Shown in pieces: positions 1-30,954 of a stretch of DNA of 64,000 bases; positions within the stretch are counted from its first letter, which is position 1; each line of letters opens with the position of its first letter. Source of the DNA: an uncultured Chloroflexia bacterium. GTDB taxonomy: Bacteria > Chloroflexota > Limnocylindria > Limnocylindrales > CSP1-4. The position numbers were made by a program, and so were the translations under genes. The notes below the pieces were generated by a model. It was given only the letters and a program-made list of their open reading frames with translations, did no database searches and was not told where the DNA came from. The DNA lies in the NCBI GenBank assembly GCA_963771795.1, contig CAVYUR010000002.1, positions 23,557 to 87,556 on the forward strand, in the 5' to 3' direction.

Positions 1-815
1 TGCCATACGCGAGCGCAACACCAGAAGTGCTTCTCGCGGCCCACCAGGCCGAGTGTGGGATCAGCTTCCAGGACTCGCTGACGTTCGCTGCGGCGGCCGG
101 CGCGGACATCGTGAGTGTCGCCGCAATCCTCCAACGAACCGCGTCCGCCATCGGCGTTCTGGGTGGCGGTCCGCTCCAGCGGCCTAAGGACCTCGACGGT
201 AAGACTTACGCAGGCTTCGGCTATCCGAACGAGGTGCCGACGCTCAAGGCGGTTATCGCGGCCGACGGCGGCAAGGGCGAGTTCACGGTCGCGACGCTGA
301 ACAGCGCGGCCTACGAGGCGATTTACAACAAGCAAGCCGACTTCACGATCCCGTTCACCGCCTGGGAGGGGGTCGAGGCCGATCTCCGCGGAATTGACCT
401 GCGCTACTTCCAGTTCTCGGACTACGGGTTCCCCGAGTTCTACCAGGTCGTCATCGCATGCGATCGGCAATGGCTCGAGAAGGACCCGGACGCGGCGCGC
501 AGGTTCGTCGCGGCCACGGTCCAGGGCTTTGAGTTCGCCGCCGCGGAACCCGCTGCGGCGGCCGAGATCCTGATCGCGGAGAACCCGGGCGTATTCGACT
601 CGAACAAGGAACTCCCGGCGGCAAGCCAGCGCTTCCTCGTCGATGGGGATTACCTGCTCGACGCCGAAGGGCGGTTCGGGACGCAGACGATCGAGCGCTG
701 GCGAGGCTACTCCGGATTCCTGTACGAGCAGGGACTCCTGGTCGACGGCGCCGGCAAGCCGCTTACGGCCCCGCTCGACTACGCCTCGCTCTTCACGAAC
801 GACTTCCTGCCGTGA
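1..815 (+). CDS. ABC transporter substrate-binding protein, NMT1/THI5 (ThiY-like) family, 5' partial
   Basis: Frame is open to the window start (PYASATPEVLLAAHQAE...). Motifs DLDGKTYAGFGYP and FTIPFTAWEG, C-terminal FTNDFLP. The stop overlaps the permease start (GTGA). Confidence 0.8.
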   Translation, partial: PYASATPEVLLAAHQAECGISFQDSLTFAAAAGADIVSVAAILQRTASAIGVLGGGPLQRPKDLDGKTYAGFGYPNEVPTLKAVIAADGGKGEFTVATLNSAAYEAIYNKQADFTIPFTAWEGVEADLRGIDLRYFQFSDYGFPEFYQVVIACDRQWLEKDPDAARRFVAATVQGFEFAAAEPAAAAEILIAENPGVFDSNKELPAASQRFLVDGDYLLDAEGRFGTQTIERWRGYSGFLYEQGLLVDGAGKPLTAPLDYASLFTNDFLP

Positions 816-1618
816 CCGAGCGGGCGACGGACGGCTGGCGGCGGTTCGGGCCGCCGGTCGTCCTGGTCGCGATCTTGCTCGTCGCCTGGGAGACTTACTC
901 CAGGGCATCGGGCATGAGTCAGTTCGTGCTTCCGTCGCCGAGCAGCGTCGTCGGCTCGCTGTGGGAGTCGCGTGAGCTTGCCCTCCAACACAGCGTCCCG
1001 ACGATCGTCGAGACGGTCGCCGGCCTCGGCGTCTCGATCGTCTTCGCGATCGCTGCGGCGGTGGCGATGGATCGGGCAGGGATCGTACGCAGGGCAGTCG
1101 AGCCCCTCTTGGTCGCCTCACAGACGATCCCGATCGTGGCCGTGGCCCCGCTGATCGTGGTCTGGTTCGGGTTCGGGCTCGCCCCGAAGATCCTCGTCGT
1201 CGTCCTTGTCACGTTCTTCCCGATCACCGTGGCGCTGCTTGCGGGCTTCTCGTCCGCGGAGGCCGCTGCGACGGACCTGATGCGCTCGTTCGGCGCCTCG
1301 TCGTGGCAGACGTTCCGCAAGCTGCGCTGGCCGTCGGGACTGCCCGGGCTGTTCACCGGATTGCGCATCTCGGCGACCTACGCGGTCGTCGCCGCGGTGT
1401 TCGCGGAATACGTCGGGGCGACGGAGGGGCTCGGCATCTGGATGCAGCTCTCGCAGAAGTCCTTCCGAACCGACCTCGTCTTTGCCGCCATCCTGCTCAC
1501 CGCGATCCTCAGCATCGGCCTGTTCGCGCTCGTCGTCGCAGCTGAACGAGTGACGATTCCGTGGTACCGGGCGTCCCGTTCGGCGCGCCTGCCGGAACGG
1601 TCTTCCGAAGCGGCGTAA
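812..1618 (+). CDS. ABC transporter permease, NitT/TauT (ThiX-like) family
   Basis: Multiple TM helices, SQTIPIVAVAPL, EAA-like loop (DLMRSFGASSWQTFRKLRWPSGLP), AEYVG..GLG. Confidence 0.85.
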   Translation: MTERATDGWRRFGPPVVLVAILLVAWETYSRASGMSQFVLPSPSSVVGSLWESRELALQHSVPTIVETVAGLGVSIVFAIAAAVAMDRAGIVRRAVEPLLVASQTIPIVAVAPLIVVWFGFGLAPKILVVVLVTFFPITVALLAGFSSAEAAATDLMRSFGASSWQTFRKLRWPSGLPGLFTGLRISATYAVVAAVFAEYVGATEGLGIWMQLSQKSFRTDLVFAAILLTAILSIGLFALVVAAERVTIPWYRASRSARLPERSSEAA

Positions 1619-1709
1619 CGTAGGGCGTACAACCCCGGTACACGATCTACGCTTACCAACGCGGCAGGCGCTGGCGCGTCGCGCGCAGCCGCACCAGGAG
1701 GGCCCCGAC

Positions 1710-3161
1710 ATGACCGACGTCATCGAGCGCGTCAAGACCTACCAGCAGTTCATCGGCGGCGAGTTCGTCGATTCCGCGTCGGGTGAGACGCTCGACGTCG
1801 AGAACCCCGCGAACGGCCAGGTGATCGCCAAGGTGCCGGCGTCCGCCGACGAGGACGTCAACCGGGCGGTCGATGCCGCCGACAAGGCCTTCCAGACCTG
1901 GCGCCATACGACACCGCAGGATCGGAGCCTGATCCTGCTCAAGATCGCCGATGCCCTCGAGGCAAACGCCGACGAGCTGGGCCGGCTCGAATCCGCGAAC
2001 GCCGGCAAGCCGGTCGGCGCGGCGATCGACGAGATCGCGGTCTGCGCGGATCTCTTTCGGTTCTTCGCCGGGGCGGCGCGGGTGATGGACGGCCTGGCCG
2101 CGAACGAGTTCCTTGCCGGCCACACCTCGATCATTCGGCGCGACCCGATCGGCGTGGTCGCGAGCATCGCCCCGTGGAACTACCCGCTCTACATGGCCTC
2201 CTGGAAGCTTGGCCCGGCGCTTGCCACCGGCAACACCGTCGTGCTCAAGCCGTCGATCCGGACGCCGCTGACAGCGCTGCGCTTTGCCCAGATCCTCGCG
2301 GAGCACCTGCCGGAAGGCGTCGTCAACGTTCTGTCGGGCTCCGGAGCGGCGATCGGCGACACGCTCGTCGCCCACCCGAAGGTCCGGATGGTCTCGATTA
2401 CGGGCGATACGGTCACCGGCAAGCGGATCGCCGAGATCGCCGCTGGGACCGTCAAGCGCCTGCACCTCGAGCTCGGCGGCAAGGCCCCGGTCATCGTCTT
2501 CGACGACGCCGATCTCGACCTGGCGGCCGAGACCCTCAAGGCTGCCGGGTACTGGAACAGCGGCCAGGACTGCACCGCTGCCACGCGAGTCATTGCCGGG
2601 CCGGGCGTCTACGACTCGTTCCTCGAGAAGCTCTCCGACCAGGTCCGCTCGATCAAGTGGGGCGACCCGGCCGAGGCGGACGATCTCGACATGGGCTCGC
2701 TGATCGCTCCGGCCCACGCCGACAAGGTCCAGGGCATGGTCGATCGCGCCCGGGACGGCGCCGAGGTGGTCGTCGGCGGGGTCCGACCGGATCGGCCGGG
2801 CGCGTACTACGAGCCCACAATCGTCGCCGGCGCGGACCAGAAGTCAGAGATCATCCAGGACGAGATCTTCGGGCCGGTCGTCACCGTCCAGCGGTTCGCC
2901 GACGAGGACCAGGCCGTCGCCTGGGCCAACGACACGCCGTTCGGGCTCGCCTCGTCGATCTTTACGAGCGACATCGGCAAGGCGATGCGGGTGGCCAAGG
3001 CGCTCGACTTCGGGCACGTCTGGATCAACGAGCACTTCACGCTCGCGTCGGAGACGCCTCACGGCGGCGTGAAGCAGTCCGGCTACGGCAAGGACGGCTC
3101 CAAGTACGCGCTCGAGGACTACACGTTCGTCAAGCACGTGATGATCAATACGGGCATCTGA
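1710..3161 (+). CDS. patD: Gamma-aminobutyraldehyde dehydrogenase (NAD-dependent ALDH)
   Basis: ALDH motifs PWNYP, LELGGKAP, NSGQDCTAA, EIFGPV, GGVKQSGYGKD. AGGAGG SD upstream. Confidence 0.75.
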   Translation: MTDVIERVKTYQQFIGGEFVDSASGETLDVENPANGQVIAKVPASADEDVNRAVDAADKAFQTWRHTTPQDRSLILLKIADALEANADELGRLESANAGKPVGAAIDEIAVCADLFRFFAGAARVMDGLAANEFLAGHTSIIRRDPIGVVASIAPWNYPLYMASWKLGPALATGNTVVLKPSIRTPLTALRFAQILAEHLPEGVVNVLSGSGAAIGDTLVAHPKVRMVSITGDTVTGKRIAEIAAGTVKRLHLELGGKAPVIVFDDADLDLAAETLKAAGYWNSGQDCTAATRVIAGPGVYDSFLEKLSDQVRSIKWGDPAEADDLDMGSLIAPAHADKVQGMVDRARDGAEVVVGGVRPDRPGAYYEPTIVAGADQKSEIIQDEIFGPVVTVQRFADEDQAVAWANDTPFGLASSIFTSDIGKAMRVAKALDFGHVWINEHFTLASETPHGGVKQSGYGKDGSKYALEDYTFVKHVMINTGI

Positions 3162-3179
3162 CGCCCGTGCCGACCAGCC

Positions 3180-4136
3180 TCACGGGACCAGTCTGACGAT
3201 CTCCTCGCGGATCTCGCCCAGGCGGCCGATCGTCTCGAGGTCCCACGGCGACCGAAAAACGAAGATCGGGTGGCGGAAGCCGACGGCAGCGTAGTCGGCC
3301 AGTGCGGCGGCGATGTCCTTCGGCGGCCCGAAGGCCGCTCGGCTCTCCCAGGCCGTCGGTTGGTGGGTCGCCAGGTATGAGTTCCAGACGGCCTCCGCCT
3401 CGGTGCGGGAGCCGCGCGCCACGGCATTCATCGTGAACGTCCGCTCGATCTCCGCCTGATCGCGGCCGACGGCCTCGCAATGCTCGACGAGAATCGCGTC
3501 ACTGGCGGCGAGGGTCTCCGGGCTGCCATAGGCGTTCCAGATGTCGGCATGGAGGGCGACGGTCCGGAGCGTCTTGCGCGGCCCGGACCCGCCGATCAGG
3601 ATCGGCAGGCGCTCCTGGAGTGAGCGCGGCTCGCAGAGTGCGTCTTTGAAGGTGTAGAACCGGCCCTCATGGCTGAACCGCTCTCCGTCGAGCAGCCGCC
3701 GGATGATCCCGACCGCCTCTTCCAGCCGATCGAGCCGCTCGCCGAACCCGCTGCCGAAGTCGACTCCGAAGGCCTCGTGCTCCCGCTCGAACCAGCCGCC
3801 GCCCAGGCCCAACACGGACCGCCCGGCGCTGATCCCATCGACCGTGGTCGCCAGCTTGGCCGTGAGTCCCGGATTCCGGAACGTGTTGGCCGCGACGAGC
3901 AGGCCGATCCGGGCGCGGGAGGTGGCGGCCGCGAGCGCGGCAAGCGCCGCCCAGCCCTCGAGCTTGCCGTCGTCCGAGTCGCCCTCGTCGGACATGAGGT
4001 GGTCGTCCACCCAGAGGCTGTCGGCCCCGGCCTCTTCGGCGGCCACGACCGCATCGCGGAGGCTCGGCCAGTCGGTTCGCTGGATCCAGAACGCCGCGCC
4101 GATCTGGATCGGGTGGGGAGGTGCCGGTGACTGCAT
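3180..4136 (-). CDS. LLM-class (probably F420-dependent) oxidoreductase
   Basis: AEEAGADSLWVDDH, RNPGLTAKLATTVD, LGLGGGW, PILIGGSG motifs. Confidence 0.8.
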   Translation of the reverse strand: MQSPAPPHPIQIGAAFWIQRTDWPSLRDAVVAAEEAGADSLWVDDHLMSDEGDSDDGKLEGWAALAALAAATSRARIGLLVAANTFRNPGLTAKLATTVDGISAGRSVLGLGGGWFEREHEAFGVDFGSGFGERLDRLEEAVGIIRRLLDGERFSHEGRFYTFKDALCEPRSLQERLPILIGGSGPRKTLRTVALHADIWNAYGSPETLAASDAILVEHCEAVGRDQAEIERTFTMNAVARGSRTEAEAVWNSYLATHQPTAWESRAAFGPPKDIAAALADYAAVGFRHPIFVFRSPWDLETIGRLGEIREEIVRLVP

Positions 4137-9791: not shown

Positions 9792-11234
9792 ATGGCCGTC
9801 GGCTCTTCCAACGACTTCGATCTCGTCGTGCTCGGCGCGGGTACCGGCGGCTACACGGCGGCGTTCCGGGCGGCCCAGCTCGGGCTGCGCGTCGCGCTCG
9901 TCGACGAGGACAAGATCGGCGGGACGTGCCTCCATCGCGGCTGCATCCCGACGAAGGCCCTGCTGGAATCCGCCGCGTTCACCGAGCGTGTCCGCCATGC
10001 CAAGGATTTTGGCCTGAAGCTGCCGGGCGAGGCCGAGATCGACTACGTCCAGATGGCCGCCCGCCGCGACCAGGTCGTCAAGCGGATGTGGACGGGGCTC
10101 AAGACGCTCGTCGACAAGAACAAGGTGACCTGGATCCAGGGTCGTGGCCGCCTCGATGGCCCCAACAAGATCCGGGTCGCCCAGGCCGGCGAGGATGGCA
10201 CCCCCGGAAAGGGCGGCGAGCGGGTCCTCCAGGCCAACGACGTGATCGTCGCTACCGGGTCGCGCGTCAAGTCGCTGCCCGGCCTCGTGCCGGACGGCGA
10301 ACGGATCCTGACCTCCGACGACGTCCTGCGCGCCGACAAGCTGCCGAAAGACGTGATCGTCGTCGGTGGCGGCGCGGTCGGCGTCGAATTCGCCTCGATG
10401 TACCACGACCTCGGCGTCAAGGTCACGCTTCTCGAATACCTGCCGGCGATCGTCCCGCTCGAGGATCGCGAAGTGAGCCAGGCGCTCGAGCGCAGCTTCA
10501 CCCGCCGCGGCATGACCGTCATGACGAACGCGCGCTTCGACGCGACCAAGGTCGACATCGAGAAGGCGGGCGTCTGCGTGATGGTCGGGCCGGAGGGCAA
10601 GGAGCCGCAGGAGCTGCGGGCCGACTTGATGCTGGTCGCAGCGGGACGGGCGACGAACGTCGAGGAGATCGGCCTCGATACGACGAAGGTCGAGGTCGAC
10701 AAGGGCATCATCAAGGTCGACGGCCGGATGCGGACGAAGGAGCCCCATGTATACGCGATCGGGGACGTCGTCGGCGGGCTGATGCTCGCCCACACCGCCG
10801 CGCACGAGGGCATCGTTGCAGCTCACACGATCGCCGGGGAGAAGGACGTCCACCCGATCGACTACGTGAAGCAGCCGCGGGCGACCTACTGCCGCCCGGA
10901 GATCGCCTCGATCGGGTTGACCCAGCAGCAGTGCGAGGAGCAAGGGCTGCCGATCAAGGTCGGCAAGGTGCCGTTCCAGGCGATCGCCAAGGCGATCATC
11001 GGCGGCGAGTACGAGGGCTTCACCAAGGTCATCGGCCACAAGGAGACGGACGAGACCCTCGGGATCCATATCATCGGCCCGCATGCGACGGACCTGATCG
11101 CCGAGGCATCGGTCGCGTTCGAACTGGAAGCGACGCCGTGGGAGATCGGCGGCGCAACGCACGCCCACCCGACCTTCTCGGAGGTCATGGGGGAGGCGGC
11201 GATGGCCGTTGACGGACGATCGATCAACTTCTGA
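9792..11234 (+). CDS. lpdA: Dihydrolipoyl dehydrogenase (E3)
   Basis: GAGTGGY, GGTCLHRGCIPTK redox disulfide, GGGAVGVEFA, HAHPTFSE. Confidence 0.95.
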   Translation: MAVGSSNDFDLVVLGAGTGGYTAAFRAAQLGLRVALVDEDKIGGTCLHRGCIPTKALLESAAFTERVRHAKDFGLKLPGEAEIDYVQMAARRDQVVKRMWTGLKTLVDKNKVTWIQGRGRLDGPNKIRVAQAGEDGTPGKGGERVLQANDVIVATGSRVKSLPGLVPDGERILTSDDVLRADKLPKDVIVVGGGAVGVEFASMYHDLGVKVTLLEYLPAIVPLEDREVSQALERSFTRRGMTVMTNARFDATKVDIEKAGVCVMVGPEGKEPQELRADLMLVAAGRATNVEEIGLDTTKVEVDKGIIKVDGRMRTKEPHVYAIGDVVGGLMLAHTAAHEGIVAAHTIAGEKDVHPIDYVKQPRATYCRPEIASIGLTQQQCEEQGLPIKVGKVPFQAIAKAIIGGEYEGFTKVIGHKETDETLGIHIIGPHATDLIAEASVAFELEATPWEIGGATHAHPTFSEVMGEAAMAVDGRSINF

Positions 11235-11253
11235 GCCGGCAGCGGAGGAGCTG

Positions 11254-12354
11254 ATGGCGGTGACATCCCGGACGCGCAAGGCGGCGGCAGCGCACCTCGG
11301 TGACGCGGTCGGGCTGTCCGACGCGCAGTTGCTCGAGATGTACGGCGTCGTCGCGCTCGCCCGGGCCGTCGACGAGCGGATGTGGATCCTCAACAGGGCC
11401 GGCCGGATCCCGTTCGTGATCTCGGGGCAGGGTCACGAGGGCGCCCAGGTCGGGATCGCCTGGGCCCTTGAGAAGAAGAAGGACTGGATCGCCCCGTTCT
11501 ACCGCTCGATCGCGACGTGCCTGACGTTCGGGATGAGCGCCCGCGACATCCTCACCGCGCAGTACGCGACCGCGAGCGACCCCTCGTCCGGCGGCCGTCA
11601 GATGCCGGGTCACTACGGCAGCCACGAGCACAACATCGTGTCGGTCTCCTCGCCGGTCGCGACCCAGCTCCTCCACGCCGTCGGGATCGCGCTCGCCGCG
11701 AAGATCCGCAAGACCGGCCAGGTCGCAATGACCTCGATGGGGGAGGGGAGCAGCAACCAGGGAGACGTCCACGAAGGGCTCAACTTCGCGGCGATCCACA
11801 AGCTGCCGTTCATCTTCGTCGTCGAGAACAACGGCTACGCGATCAGCGTGCCGCTGGCCCGCCAGGTCGCCGGCTCCAGCGTCGCCGATCGGGCGGCCGG
11901 CTACGGGATCCCCGGTGTCACCGTCGATGGCTCCGATGTCCTGGCCTGCTACGCCGCGTCGCGCGCAGCCGTCGAGCGAGCCCGGCAGGGCGATGGACCG
12001 ACCCTCATCGAGGCAAAGGTCACCCGCCTCACCGCCCACTCATCGGACGACCAGCAGACGAAATACCGCTCCGAAGAGGAGCTCGCCGCTGAGAAGGCAC
12101 TGGACCCGCTGCCGCTCTTCCGGGCGCAGCTCGCCGATGCGGGCGTCCTGACGCCCGAGGCGGAGGAGAAGATCGTCGCCGACATCACCGCCGCAGTCCA
12201 CGACGCGACCGAGTACGCGGAGTCGCAGCCGGATCCCGACCCCTCCACGGCGATGAAGTGGGTCTTCGCCGAGGACTGGCCGGGCGAGACGCCGCCGCCG
12301 TGGGGCTTCGGGAAGCCAGGCGTGGCCGAGGGCGAGGGCGAAGGCGCCCACTGA
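11254..12354 (+). CDS. bkdAA: 2-oxoacid dehydrogenase E1 alpha, branched-chain (Bacillus BkdAA-like)
   Basis: MWILNRAGRIPFVISGQGHEGAQVG, TPP motif GEGSSNQG...VENNGYAIS, AHSSDD. GGAGGAG SD before ATG 11254. Confidence 0.75.
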   Translation: MAVTSRTRKAAAAHLGDAVGLSDAQLLEMYGVVALARAVDERMWILNRAGRIPFVISGQGHEGAQVGIAWALEKKKDWIAPFYRSIATCLTFGMSARDILTAQYATASDPSSGGRQMPGHYGSHEHNIVSVSSPVATQLLHAVGIALAAKIRKTGQVAMTSMGEGSSNQGDVHEGLNFAAIHKLPFIFVVENNGYAISVPLARQVAGSSVADRAAGYGIPGVTVDGSDVLACYAASRAAVERARQGDGPTLIEAKVTRLTAHSSDDQQTKYRSEEELAAEKALDPLPLFRAQLADAGVLTPEAEEKIVADITAAVHDATEYAESQPDPDPSTAMKWVFAEDWPGETPPPWGFGKPGVAEGEGEGAH

Positions 12355-19658: not shown

Positions 19659-20687
19659 ATGTCCCGCGAGCTCCCGATCTTTAGTCCTTCGGGTCCAGCC
19701 CACCACGGCTCTTCCGCGCCTGAGACCATCGCGATGGGCGGCTCGGTCACGCCGCTGCGGAGGCATCCCGACTGGATCCGCTCGCGACTGCCGTCCGGCG
19801 AGAACTACCACGACCTCAAGGGCCTGATGCGCGGCCTCAATCTCAACACGGTCTGCGAAGAGGCGCACTGCCCGAACATCGGCGAGTGCTGGGACCAGCG
19901 GACCGCGACGATCATGATTCTCGGCGACACGTGCACGCGGGCCTGCGGCTTCTGCGCCGTCAAGACGGGCCGACCGACCTGGTTCGACGACGACGAGCCG
20001 CGCCGGGTCGCCGAAGCAGTCGGGGCCATGCACCTCGAGCATGTCGTCGTAACGAGCGTCGCCCGGGACGACCTGCCCGACGGTGGATCCAGGATCTTCG
20101 CCGAGACGATCCTCGCGATGCGCGATACGAGCCCCGGGATGGGGATCGAGGTCCTGATCCCGGACTTCGACGGCTCCGACGATCGGCTGCGGACCGTGAT
20201 GGACGCCCGGCCCGACATCCTCAACCACAACCTCGAGACCGTGAAGCGGCTCCAGAAGCCGGTCCGCAAACGAGCCCGATGGGATCGCAGCCTGTACGTC
20301 CTGCGACGGGCGAAGGAGATGTCGGTCGAGATCGGCTACCCGGCCCACACGAAGTCGAGCCTGATGGTCGGCCTGGGCGAGGCACGCGACGAGCTCACGG
20401 AGGCGTTCGAGGCACTGCGCGAGGTCGACGTTGACATCCTCACGATCGGCCAGTACCTGCGGCCTTCGGAAAAGCACCTGCCACTTGAGCGCTACTACCA
20501 TCCCGACGAATTCGCTGAGATGAAGCTCGAGGCGCTCGGGCTCGGGTTCAAGCACGTCGAGTCCGCGCCGCTCGTCCGGTCCAGCTATCACGCCCGCGAC
20601 CAGGTCCCGGGCGCGGAGCTGCGGGCGCTCCGCCGCCGCCAGGCCACACTCGACTCCGACGGCCGCGTCGTTCCGGCAGCCAGCTGA
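19659..20687 (+). CDS. lipA: Lipoyl synthase
   Basis: [21 protein letters not shown] radical SAM motif, VRSSYHA. Leaderless TAGACT -10 at 19647. Confidence 0.95.
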
Positions 20688-20718
20688 TCAGGCCCCGGCA
20701 GCTGCCCGGGCGGACGAC

Positions 20719-21474
20719 ATGAATCCGGACCCCGACGCCACCGAGCTCTTCGTCGAGCGAGTCCGGGTGACGGGGCGGCGTCCGATCGTCTCGGCGGTGA
20801 TCGTTGGCGCGGCGGTCGTGTCGTTGATCGGCCTCGCCATCCTGAAGCCATGGGTACCGCCGCCGGACTTGCGCGCCGACGGAGTTTCGACTTCGGGGTC
20901 AACAATCGCGCCGTCGTTCGGAAATGCAGCCCCGTCGCGGGCACCGACCAGCGCCACGCCTCGACCCATCGTCCAGGCGACGCCGCTGCCGTTTCTCCCA
21001 CGTGCCGCCGAACTCCTCGGGACCGCGGCGCGGCACGATGACTGGGGCATCCGTGCGGTCGTCGTGCCGGCCGTGACGATGCGATTCGATGTGAATGGGC
21101 CAGTCCTCGCCGAGCGCTGGATGTCAATCGACGTCGCCCACGGCGCGGCATGGAACCTGGCACGGGAAGGCGCGGCGGAGAGCTCGGGCGATGCCGTACT
21201 GGCGATTGGTGCAACGACGCCCGCCGAGGTCACTCCACTCGGCGTCCGGTTCTGGCGGCTCGACGACGTGTCCGGACCGCGCGAGATCGAGCCAGTGCTG
21301 CTCCAGAGCCCCGATCAACAAACGCAGTTATGGCTGCCAGACCCTGCCAACTCGACGCGGATCGGCACGTGGCCGCCCGGGTCCTACAGGATCGATGTGA
21401 CGGATGGGGAGCGGGTCGTCCGGCTCGTGATCATCGTCCGAGGCGAGCCTTCGGCTGACCGCCCCTCGAACTGA
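20719..21474 (+). CDS. Hypothetical single-TM membrane-anchored protein
   Basis: One TM helix (IVSAVIVGAAVVSLIGLAIL), Ser/Thr/Pro linker, beta-rich C-terminal domain (WPPGSYRIDV). Confidence 0.6.
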   Translation: MNPDPDATELFVERVRVTGRRPIVSAVIVGAAVVSLIGLAILKPWVPPPDLRADGVSTSGSTIAPSFGNAAPSRAPTSATPRPIVQATPLPFLPRAAELLGTAARHDDWGIRAVVVPAVTMRFDVNGPVLAERWMSIDVAHGAAWNLAREGAAESSGDAVLAIGATTPAEVTPLGVRFWRLDDVSGPREIEPVLLQSPDQQTQLWLPDPANSTRIGTWPPGSYRIDVTDGERVVRLVIIVRGEPSADRPSN

Positions 21475-21575
21475 GGCCTTGAATCGCCGTCGGCCGAGCC
21501 ACATAATCCCGCGACCGGGCTGGACCCATCGCTTCGTGACTGCGCCCGGGGCGATGACAGCGTGAGAGTGCGGCC

Positions 21576-23259
21576 TTGCAAATCGTGGCCCTCGCACCGC
21601 CCGGTCAATTCCCGACGACCATCGCAGACCTGCCCTGGTGGGGCAGCCTCGCGGCGTCCGGCCACGACCTCGAGCGGCCGTCGGTCAACGCCCGGTGGTG
21701 GCGCGACCTGGCGTCGCCGGACGGGGCGCGGACGCTAAGGGCGACATCAGGCAAGATCCCGGACCTGGCGACCAACGCCGGCGCCGCTCTCCAACTGCTG
21801 CAGACGGCCGAGACGTTCGCCAGCCGCGACCGCTATCGATCGGCGGTCGGCGCCATCGGTCGCCTTCTCGACCAAATCAACGACGATCAGCCGGATCTCC
21901 GGCTGTCCTTTGCGGCCGGTGCGCGTGTTCGAGGGCTCGATTGCGAGGATAGTCGCGCGATCGTCCGGTACGCCGGCCGCGCTACTCAGCTGTCGGCGTC
22001 AGTCGAGCGAGCCCTGCGCGTCGTCGGTCCGGAGCCCGACATTGCCATCGTCTCTGTGACGAGCACGGAGGAGCTCCTCACGGCCTTCATCGCGGTGCGT
22101 CTCCTGAAGGAACGGTCACCCAGGCTGTTCGCGGTCCTCGCCGATCACAGCTTCGGAAGCTTTTCACTTACGCCCCATGTCGATGCGCTCGCTCGCTCTG
22201 GCGCAGTCGCCACATGGTTCGACGCCATGATCGTCACGCCCGGCGATCGCGATGCGCTCGTCCCGGCGATCGTTCGCGAGCTTGAGCAGGGCAAGCGACC
22301 CACGGGCTTCCTCCGGCTCGGCGACCTGCCGGACGTCGAGGCGAGCGCGGCCGGCAGCTCTGCCCCGCCGCCGACGGATACCTTCGCGCCGGCGCCGGTG
22401 GCCCGGCTCCGACTGAGTGGCGGTCGCTGCTACTGGGATCGCTGCACGTTCTGTGTCCAGGCGGAGAGCCTGTCGGACCGGCCGCCGTCGCTGGCTGACG
22501 TTCCTACCGCGGTCGAGCGTCTCGAACGGTTCGTGGCCGCCGGGTACCGCCATGCCATCTTCGCCGACGAGGCGCTCGCCCCGGCGTTCCTGGCGCGCCT
22601 GTGCGAGGCCCTGGAGGAACGTGCTCTGCCGATCGAATGGGCATGCCGCTCGAAGATCGAACGGGCCTTCACACCGGAACTGTTCAGGGCGATGGCCAAA
22701 ATCGGCTGCACCGAGGTCCTGTTCGGGCTCGAGTCCGTCGTTCCGCGCGTGCTGCGGCTCATGGACAAGGAGACTCCGGGACTCGACGCGGACGGAATCG
22801 CTCGAAATCTGCAGTGACGCCGCCGCATCCGGCATCGGCGTCCACATGAACCTGATTGCCGGGTTCCCGGGGGAGCGACCGGCCGAATTGGAAGCCTCGG
22901 TGGCGTTCGTCGAGCGCCGCCTGGCCACCCTGCCGAACGCGACCTTCTCCCTGACGCCGTTCATGCTGTTCAACGAGGCCCCGATCGCCGCCGATCCGAC
23001 GGCCCCGCTGACATCGCCGTCGGCCGCCGGCGACATGCCATTCATTCGTCGCCACTCGGGGGCGGAAGCGTGGGAGGGCGACCGCCGTCGCATCCTCGCA
23101 GCGTTGCCGCGCCTCGAACGCCGGCTGCGCGCGGCTGGAGGGTGGGGCGACGATTTGGCCTCGCGCCTTGCATGTGATTTGCTCTCCGAAACGGGACACG
23201 CGCTCATCTTCAAGTCGGCGGCTCGTGGGCCGGGATCGCCACGCTGGAGGGCGGCGTGA
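21576..23259 (+). CDS. Radical SAM protein (class B / B12-binding-like architecture); apparent +1 frameshift near 22805
   Basis: RCYWDRCTFC (Cx4Cx2C), FADEAL, WACRSK, FGLES..PRVLRLMDK. The C-terminus GIGVHMNLIAGFPGE continues in the 22417-23259 frame. TTG start uncertain. Confidence 0.75.
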
Positions 23260-23750
23260 CGACGCGCTCACTTGCGACATCGAGCCGATGGATCGGCAGC
23301 GCCGTGCTCTTCCCAGTCGCTGCGGTCGTACTGGTTGCCGCGTTCTGGGCCGAGTTCGGGCAGCAATTGCTCGGGCTGGCCGGCCTCGCCTGCGCGGCGT
23401 GCGCCGATCCCAGCAACGGCATCGACCCGGCGGGGGCGGCAGCCGGGGCTGCGGCGGCGGGAACCGTGGCGGGCGGCGCGGCGGCTGGAGGCGGCACGAC
23501 GGGAACCGATGGCGCCGATGACGCATCAGGTCGCGAACCATGGACCCCAAGGCCGACCCGGGATGCTCGCCTTCCCGACCCAACCGATGACTCAGGTGAT
23601 CAAACCCCGTGGGAGTCGCTCCCACCAAGGCCCCCAGATGCCTGGTATGAGGATCGGAGGCTGATCGAGGCCACGGAGCAGTTGCAGAAGTGGGCCGAAG
23701 GATGGATCGGAGTCGACCGAAAGGGCACCGCCCCGGCGTCCAAAGCGTGA
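23256..23750 (+). CDS. Membrane-anchored CAAC-motif protein, paralogue A (candidate RiPP-like precursor)
   Basis: GTGA overlap with the rSAM stop. TM helix, LLGLAGLACAACADPSNGID, Gly/Ala-rich tract, C-terminal KGTAPAS. Confidence 0.75.
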   Translation: MTTRSLATSSRWIGSAVLFPVAAVVLVAAFWAEFGQQLLGLAGLACAACADPSNGIDPAGAAAGAAAAGTVAGGAAAGGGTTGTDGADDASGREPWTPRPTRDARLPDPTDDSGDQTPWESLPPRPPDAWYEDRRLIEATEQLQKWAEGWIGVDRKGTAPASKA

Positions 23751-23763
23751 GGGAGAGGAAGCG

Positions 23764-24276
23764 ATGACTGTCTCGTCAGTCATGTGGAGCCGCTCGCGGA
23801 TCGGCCTCTGGGTGCTGATTCCGTCTGTGGCAGCAGTTCTCACGGTCGTGGCTCAGGCCGCGGTCGGACAGGACCTGCTCGGCCTCGCGGGCCTCGCATG
23901 CGCGGCCTGTGCCGATCCGAGCAACGGCATCGACACGATCGGAGCGGTCGGTGGGCTATTCGGCGCTGGAACGGCGGCGGGCGGTGCGGCAGCCGGGGGC
24001 GGGACCGGGACCGGCGAAACAGGCGGCGTCGGGGTCGACCGAGACGGCCGGACCGTGTGGTATCCGACCGGCCCCGAGAGCTTTCCCGATGAGCAGTCCC
24101 GCCGGAACTGGTTCGACCAGCACTTCGGACCGGGGCCGGGGCCGGTGCACCAGACGATCATCGACACGACGATTCGCGTGGGAGAACAGGTGGAAAAGTG
24201 GGTACAGGAATGGGTCGATCCGGACAAACGATGGCTCTTCGACGAAAAGGGCACAGCGCCGGCGTCGTTGTCATGA
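23764..24276 (+). CDS. Membrane-anchored CAAC-motif protein, paralogue B (candidate RiPP-like precursor)
   Basis: GGAGAGGA SD. The same 20-aa motif starts at the same residue (38). Gly/Ala tract, C-terminal KGTAPAS. Confidence 0.75.
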   Translation: MTVSSVMWSRSRIGLWVLIPSVAAVLTVVAQAAVGQDLLGLAGLACAACADPSNGIDTIGAVGGLFGAGTAAGGAAAGGGTGTGETGGVGVDRDGRTVWYPTGPESFPDEQSRRNWFDQHFGPGPGPVHQTIIDTTIRVGEQVEKWVQEWVDPDKRWLFDEKGTAPASLS

Positions 24277-24295
24277 CAATGAGTGAGGCGACGCG

Positions 24296-25463
24296 ATGAC
24301 TGCTCCGGCGATTGCAGCACCGACCCGGCGTGGAATCCCGACCCTGCTCCTCACTGGCGGCCTCATCGCGGCCATCGTCGTGTTCCTGTGGCAGCTCGCC
24401 CTGGTTCTCGCGCGGAGGCGGCGAGGCGTTCCTTATCAACCTCTGGTATCACGGCTATGTCTTCGTCTGGCTCCTGGTCATCACGGCCCTCGGGCGAACC
24501 CTCCCCCTCAGAGTCCTGGCCGCGGCGTTCTTCTTCGGGCTGTTCCTGTCCGTTGCCGTCGCGCTGGCGATCGGAGCCCCGCTCGCCGATGCTCTCGGGT
24601 CCAGCAGCCGGCTCTTCGACTCGGTCCTCATCCCGGGGCTCGAAGAAATCAGCAAGGGCCTGCCGATTCTGGCGTACTTCTGGATCCTGACCCGGCGGGG
24701 GACGTGGCAGCCGTCGATGACGGACGGATTGATGCTCGGCTTCCTCGTCGGGGCAGGTTTCGCGATCTACGAAGACGCCCTGTTCGACCGGAGCTTCGGG
24801 AGCGACTTCGGCATCGCGGACCTGACCGTCATCTTCCCGACCGTCGACGACCATCGCCTCATCGGCGAGGGCCGGAGCTTCGGCTTCTACCACGCCCAGT
24901 GGTCGGCCCTGATCGGCCTGGCGATCGGTGCCGCCTTCTTCTTTCGAGCGCGCTTCCGGCTCGCGTGGCTCTTCCCGATCGTTGCCCTGGCAGTCGTCTG
25001 GCTCGATCACGGGCGCGTGAATTACGTCGCCGGAGAGCTCGGCATTGCCGTTCGCAGCAGCCCGACCTCAGACGTGCTCGGATCGCTGACGCTCGGTGGT
25101 CGACTGCCCGTCTACCTGCTCATTGCCGGGATCATCGCCGCTGTCGTAACGGAGATCGTCGTTCGCCGCCGCATGGCTAGGCGGGACTACTTGTTCAAGG
25201 GCATCTCGCTGCCGACCCTTCTGACATGGCTCCGGTCGGGCGGTGTCGCCGGATTGCGGCGCGTCCAGGCGGGTCGCGAATACATTCGAGCGCGTCGCGC
25301 CGTCCACTACGCGCTGTGGCACTCGGCTCCGGGAGCGCTCGATTCGGGTCGGGTCTCGCGGATGGGCAGGATGCTTGTCGTCTTGGGCATGCGCGCCGGC
25401 ATGACGTTCCCGGAGCCCGGCGGCGTTCAGGGCCCGGCGCCACCACCGGCTCCTGCGGTGTGA
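24296..25463 (+). CDS. prsW: PrsW-family intramembrane metalloprotease; apparent +1 frameshift near 24400
   Basis: PGLEEISKG, GAGFAIYED, HAQWSALIG, WLDH motifs. The N-terminal TM (MTAPAIAAP...VFLWQL) is in the 24296 frame. Confidence 0.75.
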
Positions 25464-25479
25464 TTCCGACCGCCCGACT

Positions 25480-25498
25480 AGAACGTATGTTCTATACT
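25480..25498 (+). promoter_or_regulatory. LexA (Cheo-type) SOS box overlapping a TATACT -10 of a leaderless gene
   Basis: AGAAC-GTAT-GTTCT at 25480-25493, TATACT at 25493-25498, ATG 7 nt later. Confidence 0.8.
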
Positions 25499-25505
25499 GC
25501 CTCGT

Positions 25506-29797: not shown

Positions 29798-30358
29798 ATG
29801 CACAAGCAGGTCAGCGCCTTGGTATCCGCGGGCAGTTCGCCCGGCAAGCTTGCCCTGTTCGGCAAAGCGCTCGGAGCCGCGGACCTGGACATCGATACGA
29901 TCGGTGGCGCCGAATGGCTCCACGATGGTCCGCTGACGTTCATCCTCAAGGACGACGGCGAGGCGGCCATGCGACGCTTCGCGAGGGTCTGCCACGCTCA
30001 CAAGGTGCCGTGGCTCAGCTTCGCCATCGTCGCTGTCCAGATGAACGACGTGAAGGGTGAGCTCGGAAGGGCTGCCGACGCGGTCGACAACATCAACATC
30101 TACTCGGTGATCGTCCTCGAGTCGTCTGGAGACACGGCCCGGGTTGGACTCGGGATCCGGCCAACGGAGGCCGATGAGGTGGTCAGCCGACTTGGGCGCG
30201 CCGATCCTCCGTTCACGGCGGAGGTTCTTCATCACCCCGATGACCCGAACGAAGGTGTCATCTGGGACGAACGGACCGAGAGCCTCCTCCCGCTCTGGGA
30301 GGATCCGAGCACGCAGAAGGACGACCCTCGATTCTGGCAGTTCCAGAGCGCCGGCTGA
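29798..30358 (+). CDS. ACT-like domain protein, paralogue 1
   Basis: SPGKLALFGKAL..DIDTIGG and DVKGELGRAADAV..INIYSV (ACT-like repeats). Trp-rich tail. AGGAGG SD. Confidence 0.55.
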   Translation: MHKQVSALVSAGSSPGKLALFGKALGAADLDIDTIGGAEWLHDGPLTFILKDDGEAAMRRFARVCHAHKVPWLSFAIVAVQMNDVKGELGRAADAVDNINIYSVIVLESSGDTARVGLGIRPTEADEVVSRLGRADPPFTAEVLHHPDDPNEGVIWDERTESLLPLWEDPSTQKDDPRFWQFQSAG

Positions 30359-30954
30359 TGCATCGCCAGGTCGCATCTTTGATCTCGACCCGCTCGCCCG
30401 GCCGCCTCGCGAAGCTGGGAAGCGCGTTGGGTGCGCGCAGGATCGACATCGCGACCACCGGCGGCGCCGAGTGGAAGCACACCGGGCCCGTCACGCTGAC
30501 GATCAAGAACGACTGGGGCACGGGACCGGACGATCAGCTCCGTGGCTTCGCCGAAGTCATGGCCGAGGGCGAGTTTCCTTGGCTCGTGTTCCGGACGATC
30601 GAAGTCGCACTGAAGGACGAGGCTGGCTCGCTCGGCGCGGCGGCGACGGCGCTCGGTGACGTCAACGTCTACGCCGTCACGATCCTCGAAACCGACGGCA
30701 CCGATGCCCTGGTCGGGCTCGGTGTGCGTCCCAGCGAGGTCGGCGAAGCGATCGAGCGGCTGCGGGCTGCCAAGTACGAGGCACGCCGGCGCCGCCACCC
30801 GAACGAGACCGACGATGACAGCTGGTGGGATGCCTGGGACGACCGGACGGAGCGGCTCATCCCGGACTTCGACAATCCGAAGGTCCGACCCAACGACCGC
30901 AGGTTCTACCAGCTCATACGACCGACTGATCGGGGGGTCGACCGGCGTCGGTGA
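30358..30954 (+). CDS. ACT-like domain protein, paralogue 2
   Basis: TGATG coupling. SPGRLAKLGSAL..IDIATTGGAEW and DEAGSLGAAATAL..VNVYAV. Homologous Trp-rich tail. Confidence 0.55.
   Translation: MHRQVASLISTRSPGRLAKLGSALGARRIDIATTGGAEWKHTGPVTLTIKNDWGTGPDDQLRGFAEVMAEGEFPWLVFRTIEVALKDEAGSLGAAATALGDVNVYAVTILETDGTDALVGLGVRPSEVGEAIERLRAAKYEARRRRHPNETDDDSWWDAWDDRTERLIPDFDNPKVRPNDRRFYQLIRPTDRGVDRRR

Follow-up and report, generated by a model that had tools for sequence, protein, structure and literature searches.

The stretch of DNA analyzed here (64,000 nucleotides of an uncultured Chloroflexia bacterium, contig CAVYUR010000002.1; hereafter, the window) carries two adjacent genes for small membrane proteins, A and B, situated between a gene for a class-B-like radical S-adenosylmethionine (SAM) enzyme and a gene for a PrsW-family intramembrane protease. 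After a single transmembrane (TM) helix, both proteins contain the same 20-residue motif, LLGLAGLACAACADPSNGID. A, B, and their relatives are most likely dedicated partners, and putative substrates, of the adjacent PrsW protein with which they are co-inherited. The motif could well be a juxtamembrane docking or cleavage determinant for this dedicated PrsW, with the radical SAM enzyme as an optional, translationally coupled modifier; the assignment is tentative, and we infer the role of PrsW in it.

A cysteine motif in a rare family of small proteins

Translation of the window confirmed that LLGLAGLACAACADPSNGID is encoded in both genes (Table 1) and begins at residue 38 of A as of B, as a first-pass annotation of this DNA had stated. 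The two copies differ at 8 of 60 bases, with 8 synonymous and 0 nonsynonymous differences; seven fall at third codon positions, and the remaining one is a first-position change between leucine codons (TTG/CTG). Because A and B are only 44% identical overall, 20 consecutive identical residues cannot be put down to chance (0.44^20, ~7e-8). Approximately 16 of the 60 sites in the motif are synonymous, and if changes were random, the probability of all eight being synonymous would be (16/60)^8 = 3e-5. The proportion of synonymous differences (pS) between A and B is ~0.5 within the motif, which reflects long divergence and thus rules out recent gene conversion as the source of the identity. These codon differences point to long-term constraint at the protein level. 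The purifying selection proposed at first pass is further borne out by the ratio of nonsynonymous to synonymous differences (pN/pS, from Nei-Gojobori counts), which is ~0.28 for the motif across 13 family genes with DNA (pS of 0.42 to 0.48).

The two paralogues share one layout. In A, a short N-terminal tail is followed by the TM helix, the motif, a Gly/Ala tract, a Pro/Asp-rich disordered region, an amphipathic helix, and the C-terminal sequence KGTAPASKA; all elements of the layout first described (TM helix, motif, Gly/Ala tracts, KW..W helix, and KGTAPAS tail) are present. Only residues 12 to 31 form a TM-grade segment (Kyte-Doolittle hydropathy of 2.0 to 2.3), with positive charges on its N-terminal side. 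Neither the motif nor the Gly/Ala tract qualifies as a second TM helix, as hydropathy there is 0.8 to 1.2, versus 2.0 to 2.3 for the real helix. AlphaFold predicts for A one helix from residue 6 to residue 49, breaking at the Asp-Pro pair (D51-P52), a disordered middle region of low complexity, and a helix at residues 134 to 151 (predicted local distance difference test [pLDDT] of 80 to 86) that comprises the amphipathic Trp segment (QKWAEGW/EKWVQEW in A/B). With a mean pLDDT of 64 and a predicted template modeling score of 0.27, the model of A is too low in confidence for a fold search.

Relatives of A and B are few. A word-indexed search of 5.8 billion clusters retrieved 17, and a full hidden Markov model search of 1.84 billion representatives retrieved 22 representatives; pattern scans of genome contigs and metagenome contigs with the family alignment gave no confirmed loci. 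Across 29 aligned members, C49 never varies, and C46, A47, D51, and P52 are each at least 90% conserved. We take the family signature to be C-A-x-C-x-D-P after a small-residue hydrophobic stretch, of which the 20-residue motif is the local, fully conserved version. This core is kept across the family, well outside the genome in which it was noticed. No Pfam, NCBIfam, PADLOC, or PDB family matches the small proteins, a PDB sequence search with the family profile returned nothing significant, and PADLOC gave no sign of a known defense system. As judged by these searches, the signature marks a very rare, previously undescribed family of small exported or membrane-anchored proteins.

Family members are 130 to 180 amino acids long, and most are TM anchored. 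Relatives of A include P0010 (99% identical) and P0011 (79%), while the B orthologues P0001 to P0004 are 69 to 87% identical. The first Cys is replaced by Ser in P0015, which was seen on three contigs, and both Cys residues are missing from two very distant members (P0071 and P0075). The paralogue P0012 (L008, 6267-6662; three Logan contigs) has a 4-residue deletion just before the motif and ends in ...GATGRRAAP after the middle region, without the C-terminal helix and tail; it may be decaying.

Across the 13 genes, pN/pS is lowest over the motif and the Gly/Ala tract, where pS is not reduced. Among the B-type orthologues of the window, L006, and L008, the N terminus and TM helix are the least constrained part (pN/pS of 0.84), followed by the C-terminal helix and tail (0.31), the middle region (0.17), the motif (0.16), and the Gly/Ala tract (0.03). 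The middle region is constrained like the motif (0.17 versus 0.16); therefore, the hypervariable payload and polymorphic-effector layout suggested by the first-pass annotation fails. Its description of this region as unrelated and variable holds only in part: A and B do differ there, but each version is conserved within its own paralogue type. Many members share the type-A middle motif (R)DPR(I/L)P-(D/G)P-x-DD-x-GD-x-T.

An ordinary export signal, with the motif acting as a lipobox or as part of a Sec signal peptide, was also considered. The sequence LAGLAC leading up to the first Cys in A and B fits the permissive PROSITE lipobox pattern, and many members have an AxA-like site after the TM helix. 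Under the criterion that we used ([LVI][ASTVI][GAS]C no more than ~35 residues from the start and not immediately preceded by charged residues), a lipobox was nevertheless rejected. The Cys at position 46 follows a full TM helix and a polar break and is too distant from the start for a lipoprotein signal. A pattern-excluded Asp or Glu occupies position -3 (GLADLAC, AELGC, and AEGAC) in P0014, P0015, P0060, P0061, P0065, P0066, P0068, and P0069, and the invariant x-C-x-D-P that follows the Cys has no role in a lipobox. We regard an export signal of this kind as extremely improbable.

Linkage of the family to a PrsW-type protease

The PrsW protein of the window matches Pfam PF13367 with 56.1 bits (gathering cutoff, 23.5; E = 4.7e-15), and all of its orthologues bear precomputed PF13367 annotation. 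Its segments EEISK, FAIYE, YHAQW, and DHGRVN correspond to the conserved EExxK, FxxxE, and His motifs; the motif positions are kept even in the L017 PrsW, which is 26% identical. At 10 of 10 independent loci with a visible neighbor (the window, L004, L005, L006/7, L008, L027, L028, L031, L032, and L033/34), a member of the small-protein family directly abuts the PrsW gene on the same strand, mostly upstream and sometimes downstream too. The PrsW genes constitute one subfamily of only 18 proteins in 5.8 billion clusters (at least 53% identity), similar in size to the small-protein family. Each locus contains from one to at least four small-protein genes, a multiplicity that would be expected of substrates. 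Each component of the three-gene cassette (small proteins, PrsW, and radical SAM enzyme) was detected in 2 of the 43 genomes of the genus, and these two genomes are the same for all three.

A radical SAM gene is adjacent in five of the eight informative loci. In the other three (L005, L031, and L033/34), none lies within 4 to 8 kb, and the motif still reads CAACADP or CAACVDP. As the motif is kept where the radical SAM gene is absent and PrsW is always adjacent, the motif tracks, on these data, the protease and not the radical SAM enzyme. The initial suggestion of a recognition or modification site thus stands in one respect: with a radical SAM enzyme and a protease in the cassette, a role in recognition or processing is a fair reading, but persistence of the motif at three loci without an adjacent radical SAM gene speaks against the modification part. 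At L033/L034, the region upstream of the small-protein/PrsW pair (441-3381) holds another PrsW-family gene, which differs from the first and whose product begins with a Cys-rich (zinc-ribbon-like) segment; genes for a 201-amino-acid membrane protein and a trypsin-like protease follow it.

PrsW is known to cleave the single-pass protein RsiW, which offers a precedent for the mechanism that we propose; another is the comparative-genomics proposal of cargo release by PrsW domains (PMC3482391; see below). The motif is predicted to lie at the external end of the helix that anchors the protein, a place suited to cleavage of the site-1-like kind by a PrsW-type protease, and PrsW would dock at the motif, cut there, or both. 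Cleavage would free the C-terminal part, consisting of the Gly/Ala linker, the paralogue-specific Pro-rich region, the amphipathic Trp helix, and the GTAP tail, with the C terminus presumably outside the cell. Where present, the radical SAM enzyme would probably act on the small proteins before export.

The PrsW/RsiW pair of the Bacillus subtilis sigma-W system (MEROPS M82, PF13367) resembles the present one in combining a multipass PrsW protease, with EExxK, FxxxE, and His motifs, and a single-pass membrane protein whose extracytoplasmic side is the putative cut side. In contrast to that pair, no extracytoplasmic function (ECF) sigma factor or anti-sigma domain is involved here, and the partner genes are adjacent and multiplied, bearing a Cys-Ala-x-Cys-x-Asp-Pro motif with no known counterpart in RsiW. 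None of the 10 loci has a conserved sigma factor gene. The possibility that the small proteins are anti-sigma factors was rejected, given a cytoplasmic tail of ~10 residues and no sigma gene nearby. The pairing of a short, invariant motif beside a TM helix with a dedicated multipass membrane protease also recalls the GlyGly-CTERM/rhombosortase and PEP-CTERM/exosortase systems, which reportedly emerged from comparative-genomics work by Haft. Those signals are C terminal and occur on many scattered proteins, whereas the present motif is N terminal and confined to one to four genes beside the protease.

Several points weigh against docking or cleavage at the motif. Gene adjacency is just as compatible with inhibitors or with an immunity relationship as with substrates, and the PrsW site in RsiW is not known to be a Cys motif. 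Some members (P0064, P0068, and P0070) have no N-terminal TM helix and only ~20 residues ahead of CAAC, and the short start of P0068 was verified in L031, where the upstream frame lies inside the PrsW gene; therefore, the juxtamembrane picture is not valid family-wide. The loci without a radical SAM gene are contigs of 14 to 100 kb, and such a gene could lie in another part of the genomes concerned. Finally, both enzyme genes of the window are frameshifted in the assembly, and the system may be inactive in this genome.

The cysteines also suggest an intrinsic role, in which a cell-surface protein carries the CxxC as a disulfide or metal site at the surface of the membrane, or even as a cysteine-switch-like inhibitor ligating the protease active site, with PrsW as a regulator or immunity-type partner. 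The CxxC-spaced residues lie at a helix end that is predicted to be extracytoplasmic, and the module beside distant radical SAM homologues (see below) has another two-Cys motif before its poly-Ala tract. PrsW relatives in the CPBP/Abi group are, moreover, reportedly bacteriocin immunity proteins. However, P0015 has Ser for the first Cys, P0071 and P0075 have neither Cys, and a match to an HMA-type CxxC is not significant (best E = 0.3). The D-P pair and the preceding hydrophobic stretch are conserved like the cysteines, which a simple metal or disulfide site leaves unexplained, and the window PrsW has no Cys for disulfide exchange. We consider an intrinsic role quite improbable; the Ser in P0015 and the HMA result likewise make an obligate redox or metal site, as first envisaged for the CxxC, doubtful.

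Another explanation is that the small proteins are polymorphic secreted effectors, or bacteriocin-like proteins, released via PrsW, with the differing C-terminal regions as alternative payloads. The several divergent paralogues per locus fit such a role, as does the occurrence of the cassette as a rare accessory indel. There is also a comparative-genomics proposal, covering Chloroflexi and Actinobacteria, that a PrsW domain processes and releases C-terminal toxin cargo at the membrane (Zhang, Aravind et al. 2012, PMC3482391). The cargo described there is joined in cis to the PrsW domain, ends in recognizable toxin domains, and is accompanied by immunity genes. Here, PrsW is encoded in trans, the cargo is a separate small protein, and no toxin or immunity domain was detected by Pfam, NCBIfam, or PADLOC. 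The middle regions are of low complexity, predicted to be disordered, and under purifying rather than diversifying selection among orthologues (pN/pS of 0.17), and the C-terminal regions are conserved. An effector function of this type is therefore highly doubtful.

The radical SAM enzyme and its distant homologues

Radical_SAM (PF04055; E = 7.9e-6) is the only Pfam domain detected in the radical SAM enzyme. Its cluster motif is C-x4-C-x2-C (CYWDRCTFC), with three Cys residues that are invariant in 38 homologues; the only conserved cysteines are C285, C290, C293, and C378. The best NCBIfam matches are B12-type radical SAM enzymes, all far below the cutoffs, and include models of C-methyltransferases acting on ribosomally synthesized and posttranslationally modified peptides (RiPPs; TIGR03975 and ApyD). 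Pfam detected neither a RiPP precursor peptide recognition element (RRE; PqqD-like) nor a SPASM/twitch domain, and a structure-level RRE search was not made. While a PDB sequence search returned nothing significant, the AlphaFold model (pLDDT of 90.4) matches TsrM, OxsB, TokK, and MgmA as well as the cobalamin-free AprD4 and MiaB/RimO, with E values of 1e-11 to 1e-8 and template modeling scores of ~0.4 to 0.46, a likeness at the level of architecture only. The matched enzymes share an N-terminal Rossmann-like domain and a radical SAM barrel. As for the Rossmann-type cobalamin-binding domain that characterizes class B (cobalamin-dependent) enzymes, PF02310 annotation is confined to homologues of <30% identity.

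Homologues of ~42% identity occur in Paenibacillus athensensis, in metagenome-assembled genomes labeled Binatia, Gammaproteobacteria, and Sulfobacillus, and in other metagenomes. Their clusters consist of one upstream gene, the radical SAM gene, a gene for an NAD-dependent epimerase/dehydratase (always the next gene in L015, L016, L017/L018, and L030), and sometimes PrsW. The upstream gene is of two types. The first encodes a small protein that has a TM helix or signal peptide as well as a poly-Ala tract. The second encodes a multipass membrane protein of ~550 amino acids, at whose end YADNCSxLxDCW is followed by poly-Ala, a Pro-rich stretch, and a short tail (Table 1). These larger proteins repeat the module order of the small proteins (TM, two Cys, poly-Ala, Pro-rich, and tail), fused to a large membrane protein. 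We asked whether the large proteins of L030 and L016 are PrsW-like, i.e., protease-substrate fusions, and rejected this: BLASTP gave no similarity and Pfam no match.

The upstream proteins of the distant clusters end in G-x-[KR]-[AG] (GVRG, GIRG, and AGTKA), which resembles the tails of the small-protein family (PASKA, AGGKA, and GARG). These endings hint that the tail, and not the Cys motif, is what the radical SAM clade shares, possibly as a C-terminal recognition tail; we offer this as a lead only.

A RiPP-type pathway would make the motif the site at which the radical SAM enzyme recognizes or modifies the small proteins (e.g., by Cys thioether formation or C-methylation), with PrsW as the leader or anchor peptidase. 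The radical SAM gene lies directly upstream of the small-protein genes, is co-inherited with them in the genus, and is translationally coupled in the window, L008, and L028, where the first small open reading frame (ORF) starts within an overlap with the radical SAM stop codon. In this respect the cassette resembles those of radical SAM-dependent RiPPs (the proteusin-type class-B C-methyltransferases of TIGR03975, sactipeptides, and ranthipeptides), in which a radical SAM gene is coupled to small genes with a Cys segment and a protease gene is in the operon. The family matches to RiPP C-methyltransferase models point the same way, as do the ~42%-identity homologues, which again lie beside small TM or signal-peptide proteins with poly-Ala, sometimes with PrsW; two Cys residues next to an Asp would also suit the Cys-Asp thioether chemistry of ranthipeptides.

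Other features do not fit a RiPP-type pathway. The motif is intact at the three loci without an adjacent radical SAM gene, and the small proteins beside the distant homologues are without CAxCxDP. Neither an RRE nor a SPASM domain was detected by Pfam, and the enzyme scores below all curated cutoffs and has the C-x4-C-x2-C motif. The predicted topology places the motif outside the cell, apart from a cytoplasmic enzyme. In the distant clusters, the enzyme is paired with an NAD-dependent epimerase/dehydratase, and the modeled fold also matches AprD4; a nonpeptide substrate is thus possible. Overall, a RiPP-type pathway is unlikely, and the "classic leader/core" arrangement read into these genes at first pass does not suit mostly TM-anchored proteins of 130 to 180 amino acids in a system with no detected RRE or SPASM domain.

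Returning to a motif that is read by PrsW, we also put forward a broader version that is itself somewhat unlikely. CAxCxDP and the preceding small-residue helix would then be an unrecognized N-terminal processing or sorting signal read by its own PrsW subfamily and, together with a new class-B-like radical SAM clade, would define a new maturation pathway for membrane-tethered small proteins. Modification of each small protein in the cytoplasm would precede its insertion into the membrane, and clipping at the Cys motif would follow. The related radical SAM cassettes, with a two-Cys/poly-Ala module on a small TM protein or on a multipass one, an NAD-dependent epimerase, and sometimes PrsW, would be sister systems.

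The cassette in its genome and its implications

The segment that carries the cassette comprises, in order, the genes for a 251-amino-acid hypothetical protein, the radical SAM enzyme, A, B, and PrsW (Table 1), with 13 nucleotides between A and B and 19 nucleotides between B and the PrsW gene. The hypothetical protein has no Pfam or NCBIfam match; an orthologue in L006 is 53% identical, and none is present in L004/G329. In two congeners (G110, locus L037, and G050, locus L038), LipA is followed directly, ~45 nucleotides away, by an Rv2578c-type radical SAM gene. The presence of the five-gene segment (~20685-25505 of the window; 4.8 kb) between LipA and the Rv2578c-type gene is therefore polymorphic. 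None of another 300 genomes from the class yielded the small proteins. Of 401 genomes from the phylum, 2 yielded the radical SAM gene, one of them as a distant homologue.

Table 1. Features of the cassette in the window and large membrane proteins of the distant clusters
Feature	Sequence	Coordinates	Strand	Remarks
Small protein A	Window	23256..23750	+	164 amino acids; GTG start overlapping the TGA stop codon of the radical SAM gene (GTGA)
Motif copy in A, LLGLAGLACAACADPSNGID	Window	23367..23426	+	Family-wide core C46-A47-x-C49-x-D51-P52
Small protein B	Window	23764..24276	+	170 amino acids; ATG start; paralogue of A with shared layout; tail KGTAPASLS
Motif copy in B, LLGLAGLACAACADPSNGID	Window	23875..23934	+	From translation
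PrsW-family intramembrane protease gene	Window	24296..25463	+	True start ATG 24296; extra C at 24397
Class-B-like radical SAM gene	Window	21576..23259	+	Intact orthologues 561 amino acids; +1 frameshift here
Hypothetical single-pass membrane protein	Window	20719..21474	+	251 amino acids; first gene of the 4.8-kb segment
Multipass protein of ~550 amino acids	L030 (G616)	9814-11520	minus	Directly upstream of distant radical SAM gene
Multipass protein of ~550 amino acids	L016	4348-5952		Directly upstream of distant radical SAM gene

Compared with four or five orthologues, both enzyme genes are interrupted by one inserted base in the assembled sequence. In the radical SAM gene, the run at 22805-22807 is one A too long; with the intact L006 and L008 proteins as tblastn queries, residues 1 to 410 align in one frame up to 22805 and residues 411 to 558 in the next frame from 22807. 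In the PrsW gene, the extra C shifts the frame into the ORF 24312-25463. DNA alignment with L004, L006, L008, and L028 reveals a single inserted base in the window, and the N terminus fits the orthologues only in the frame that starts at 24296. The eight syntenic flanking genes are intact relative to L006. Within the genus, the cassette was otherwise found only in G329 (= L004), whose radical SAM gene is spread over several frames and contains stop codons. The frameshifts reflect either real decay of the cassette in the genus or long-read assembly error.

Elsewhere in the window, two tandem paralogous ORFs (29798-30343 and 30358-30927) lie downstream of an acyl-CoA dehydrogenase gene; they are 44% and 81% identical, respectively, to one L006 gene (11304-11894).

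The literature and databases searched gave no description of a PrsW subfamily paired with dedicated small proteins, whether or not a class-B-like radical SAM enzyme is also encoded. The parts of this partnership are of known types, namely, a PrsW-type protease with a putative membrane substrate, and the operon is RiPP-like. Very rare overall and perhaps decaying in this genome, the system is of mechanistic rather than ecological importance. Although PrsW-family proteases are widespread, very few have a known physiological substrate (RsiW-type anti-sigma factors). If a PrsW subfamily does travel with motif-bearing partners, it would provide a clean, genetically defined enzyme-substrate pair for the study of PrsW recognition. 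If the radical SAM enzyme acts on the small proteins, it would extend radical SAM modification to membrane-anchored precursors of 130 to 180 amino acids, by a class-B-like enzyme outside the curated families.

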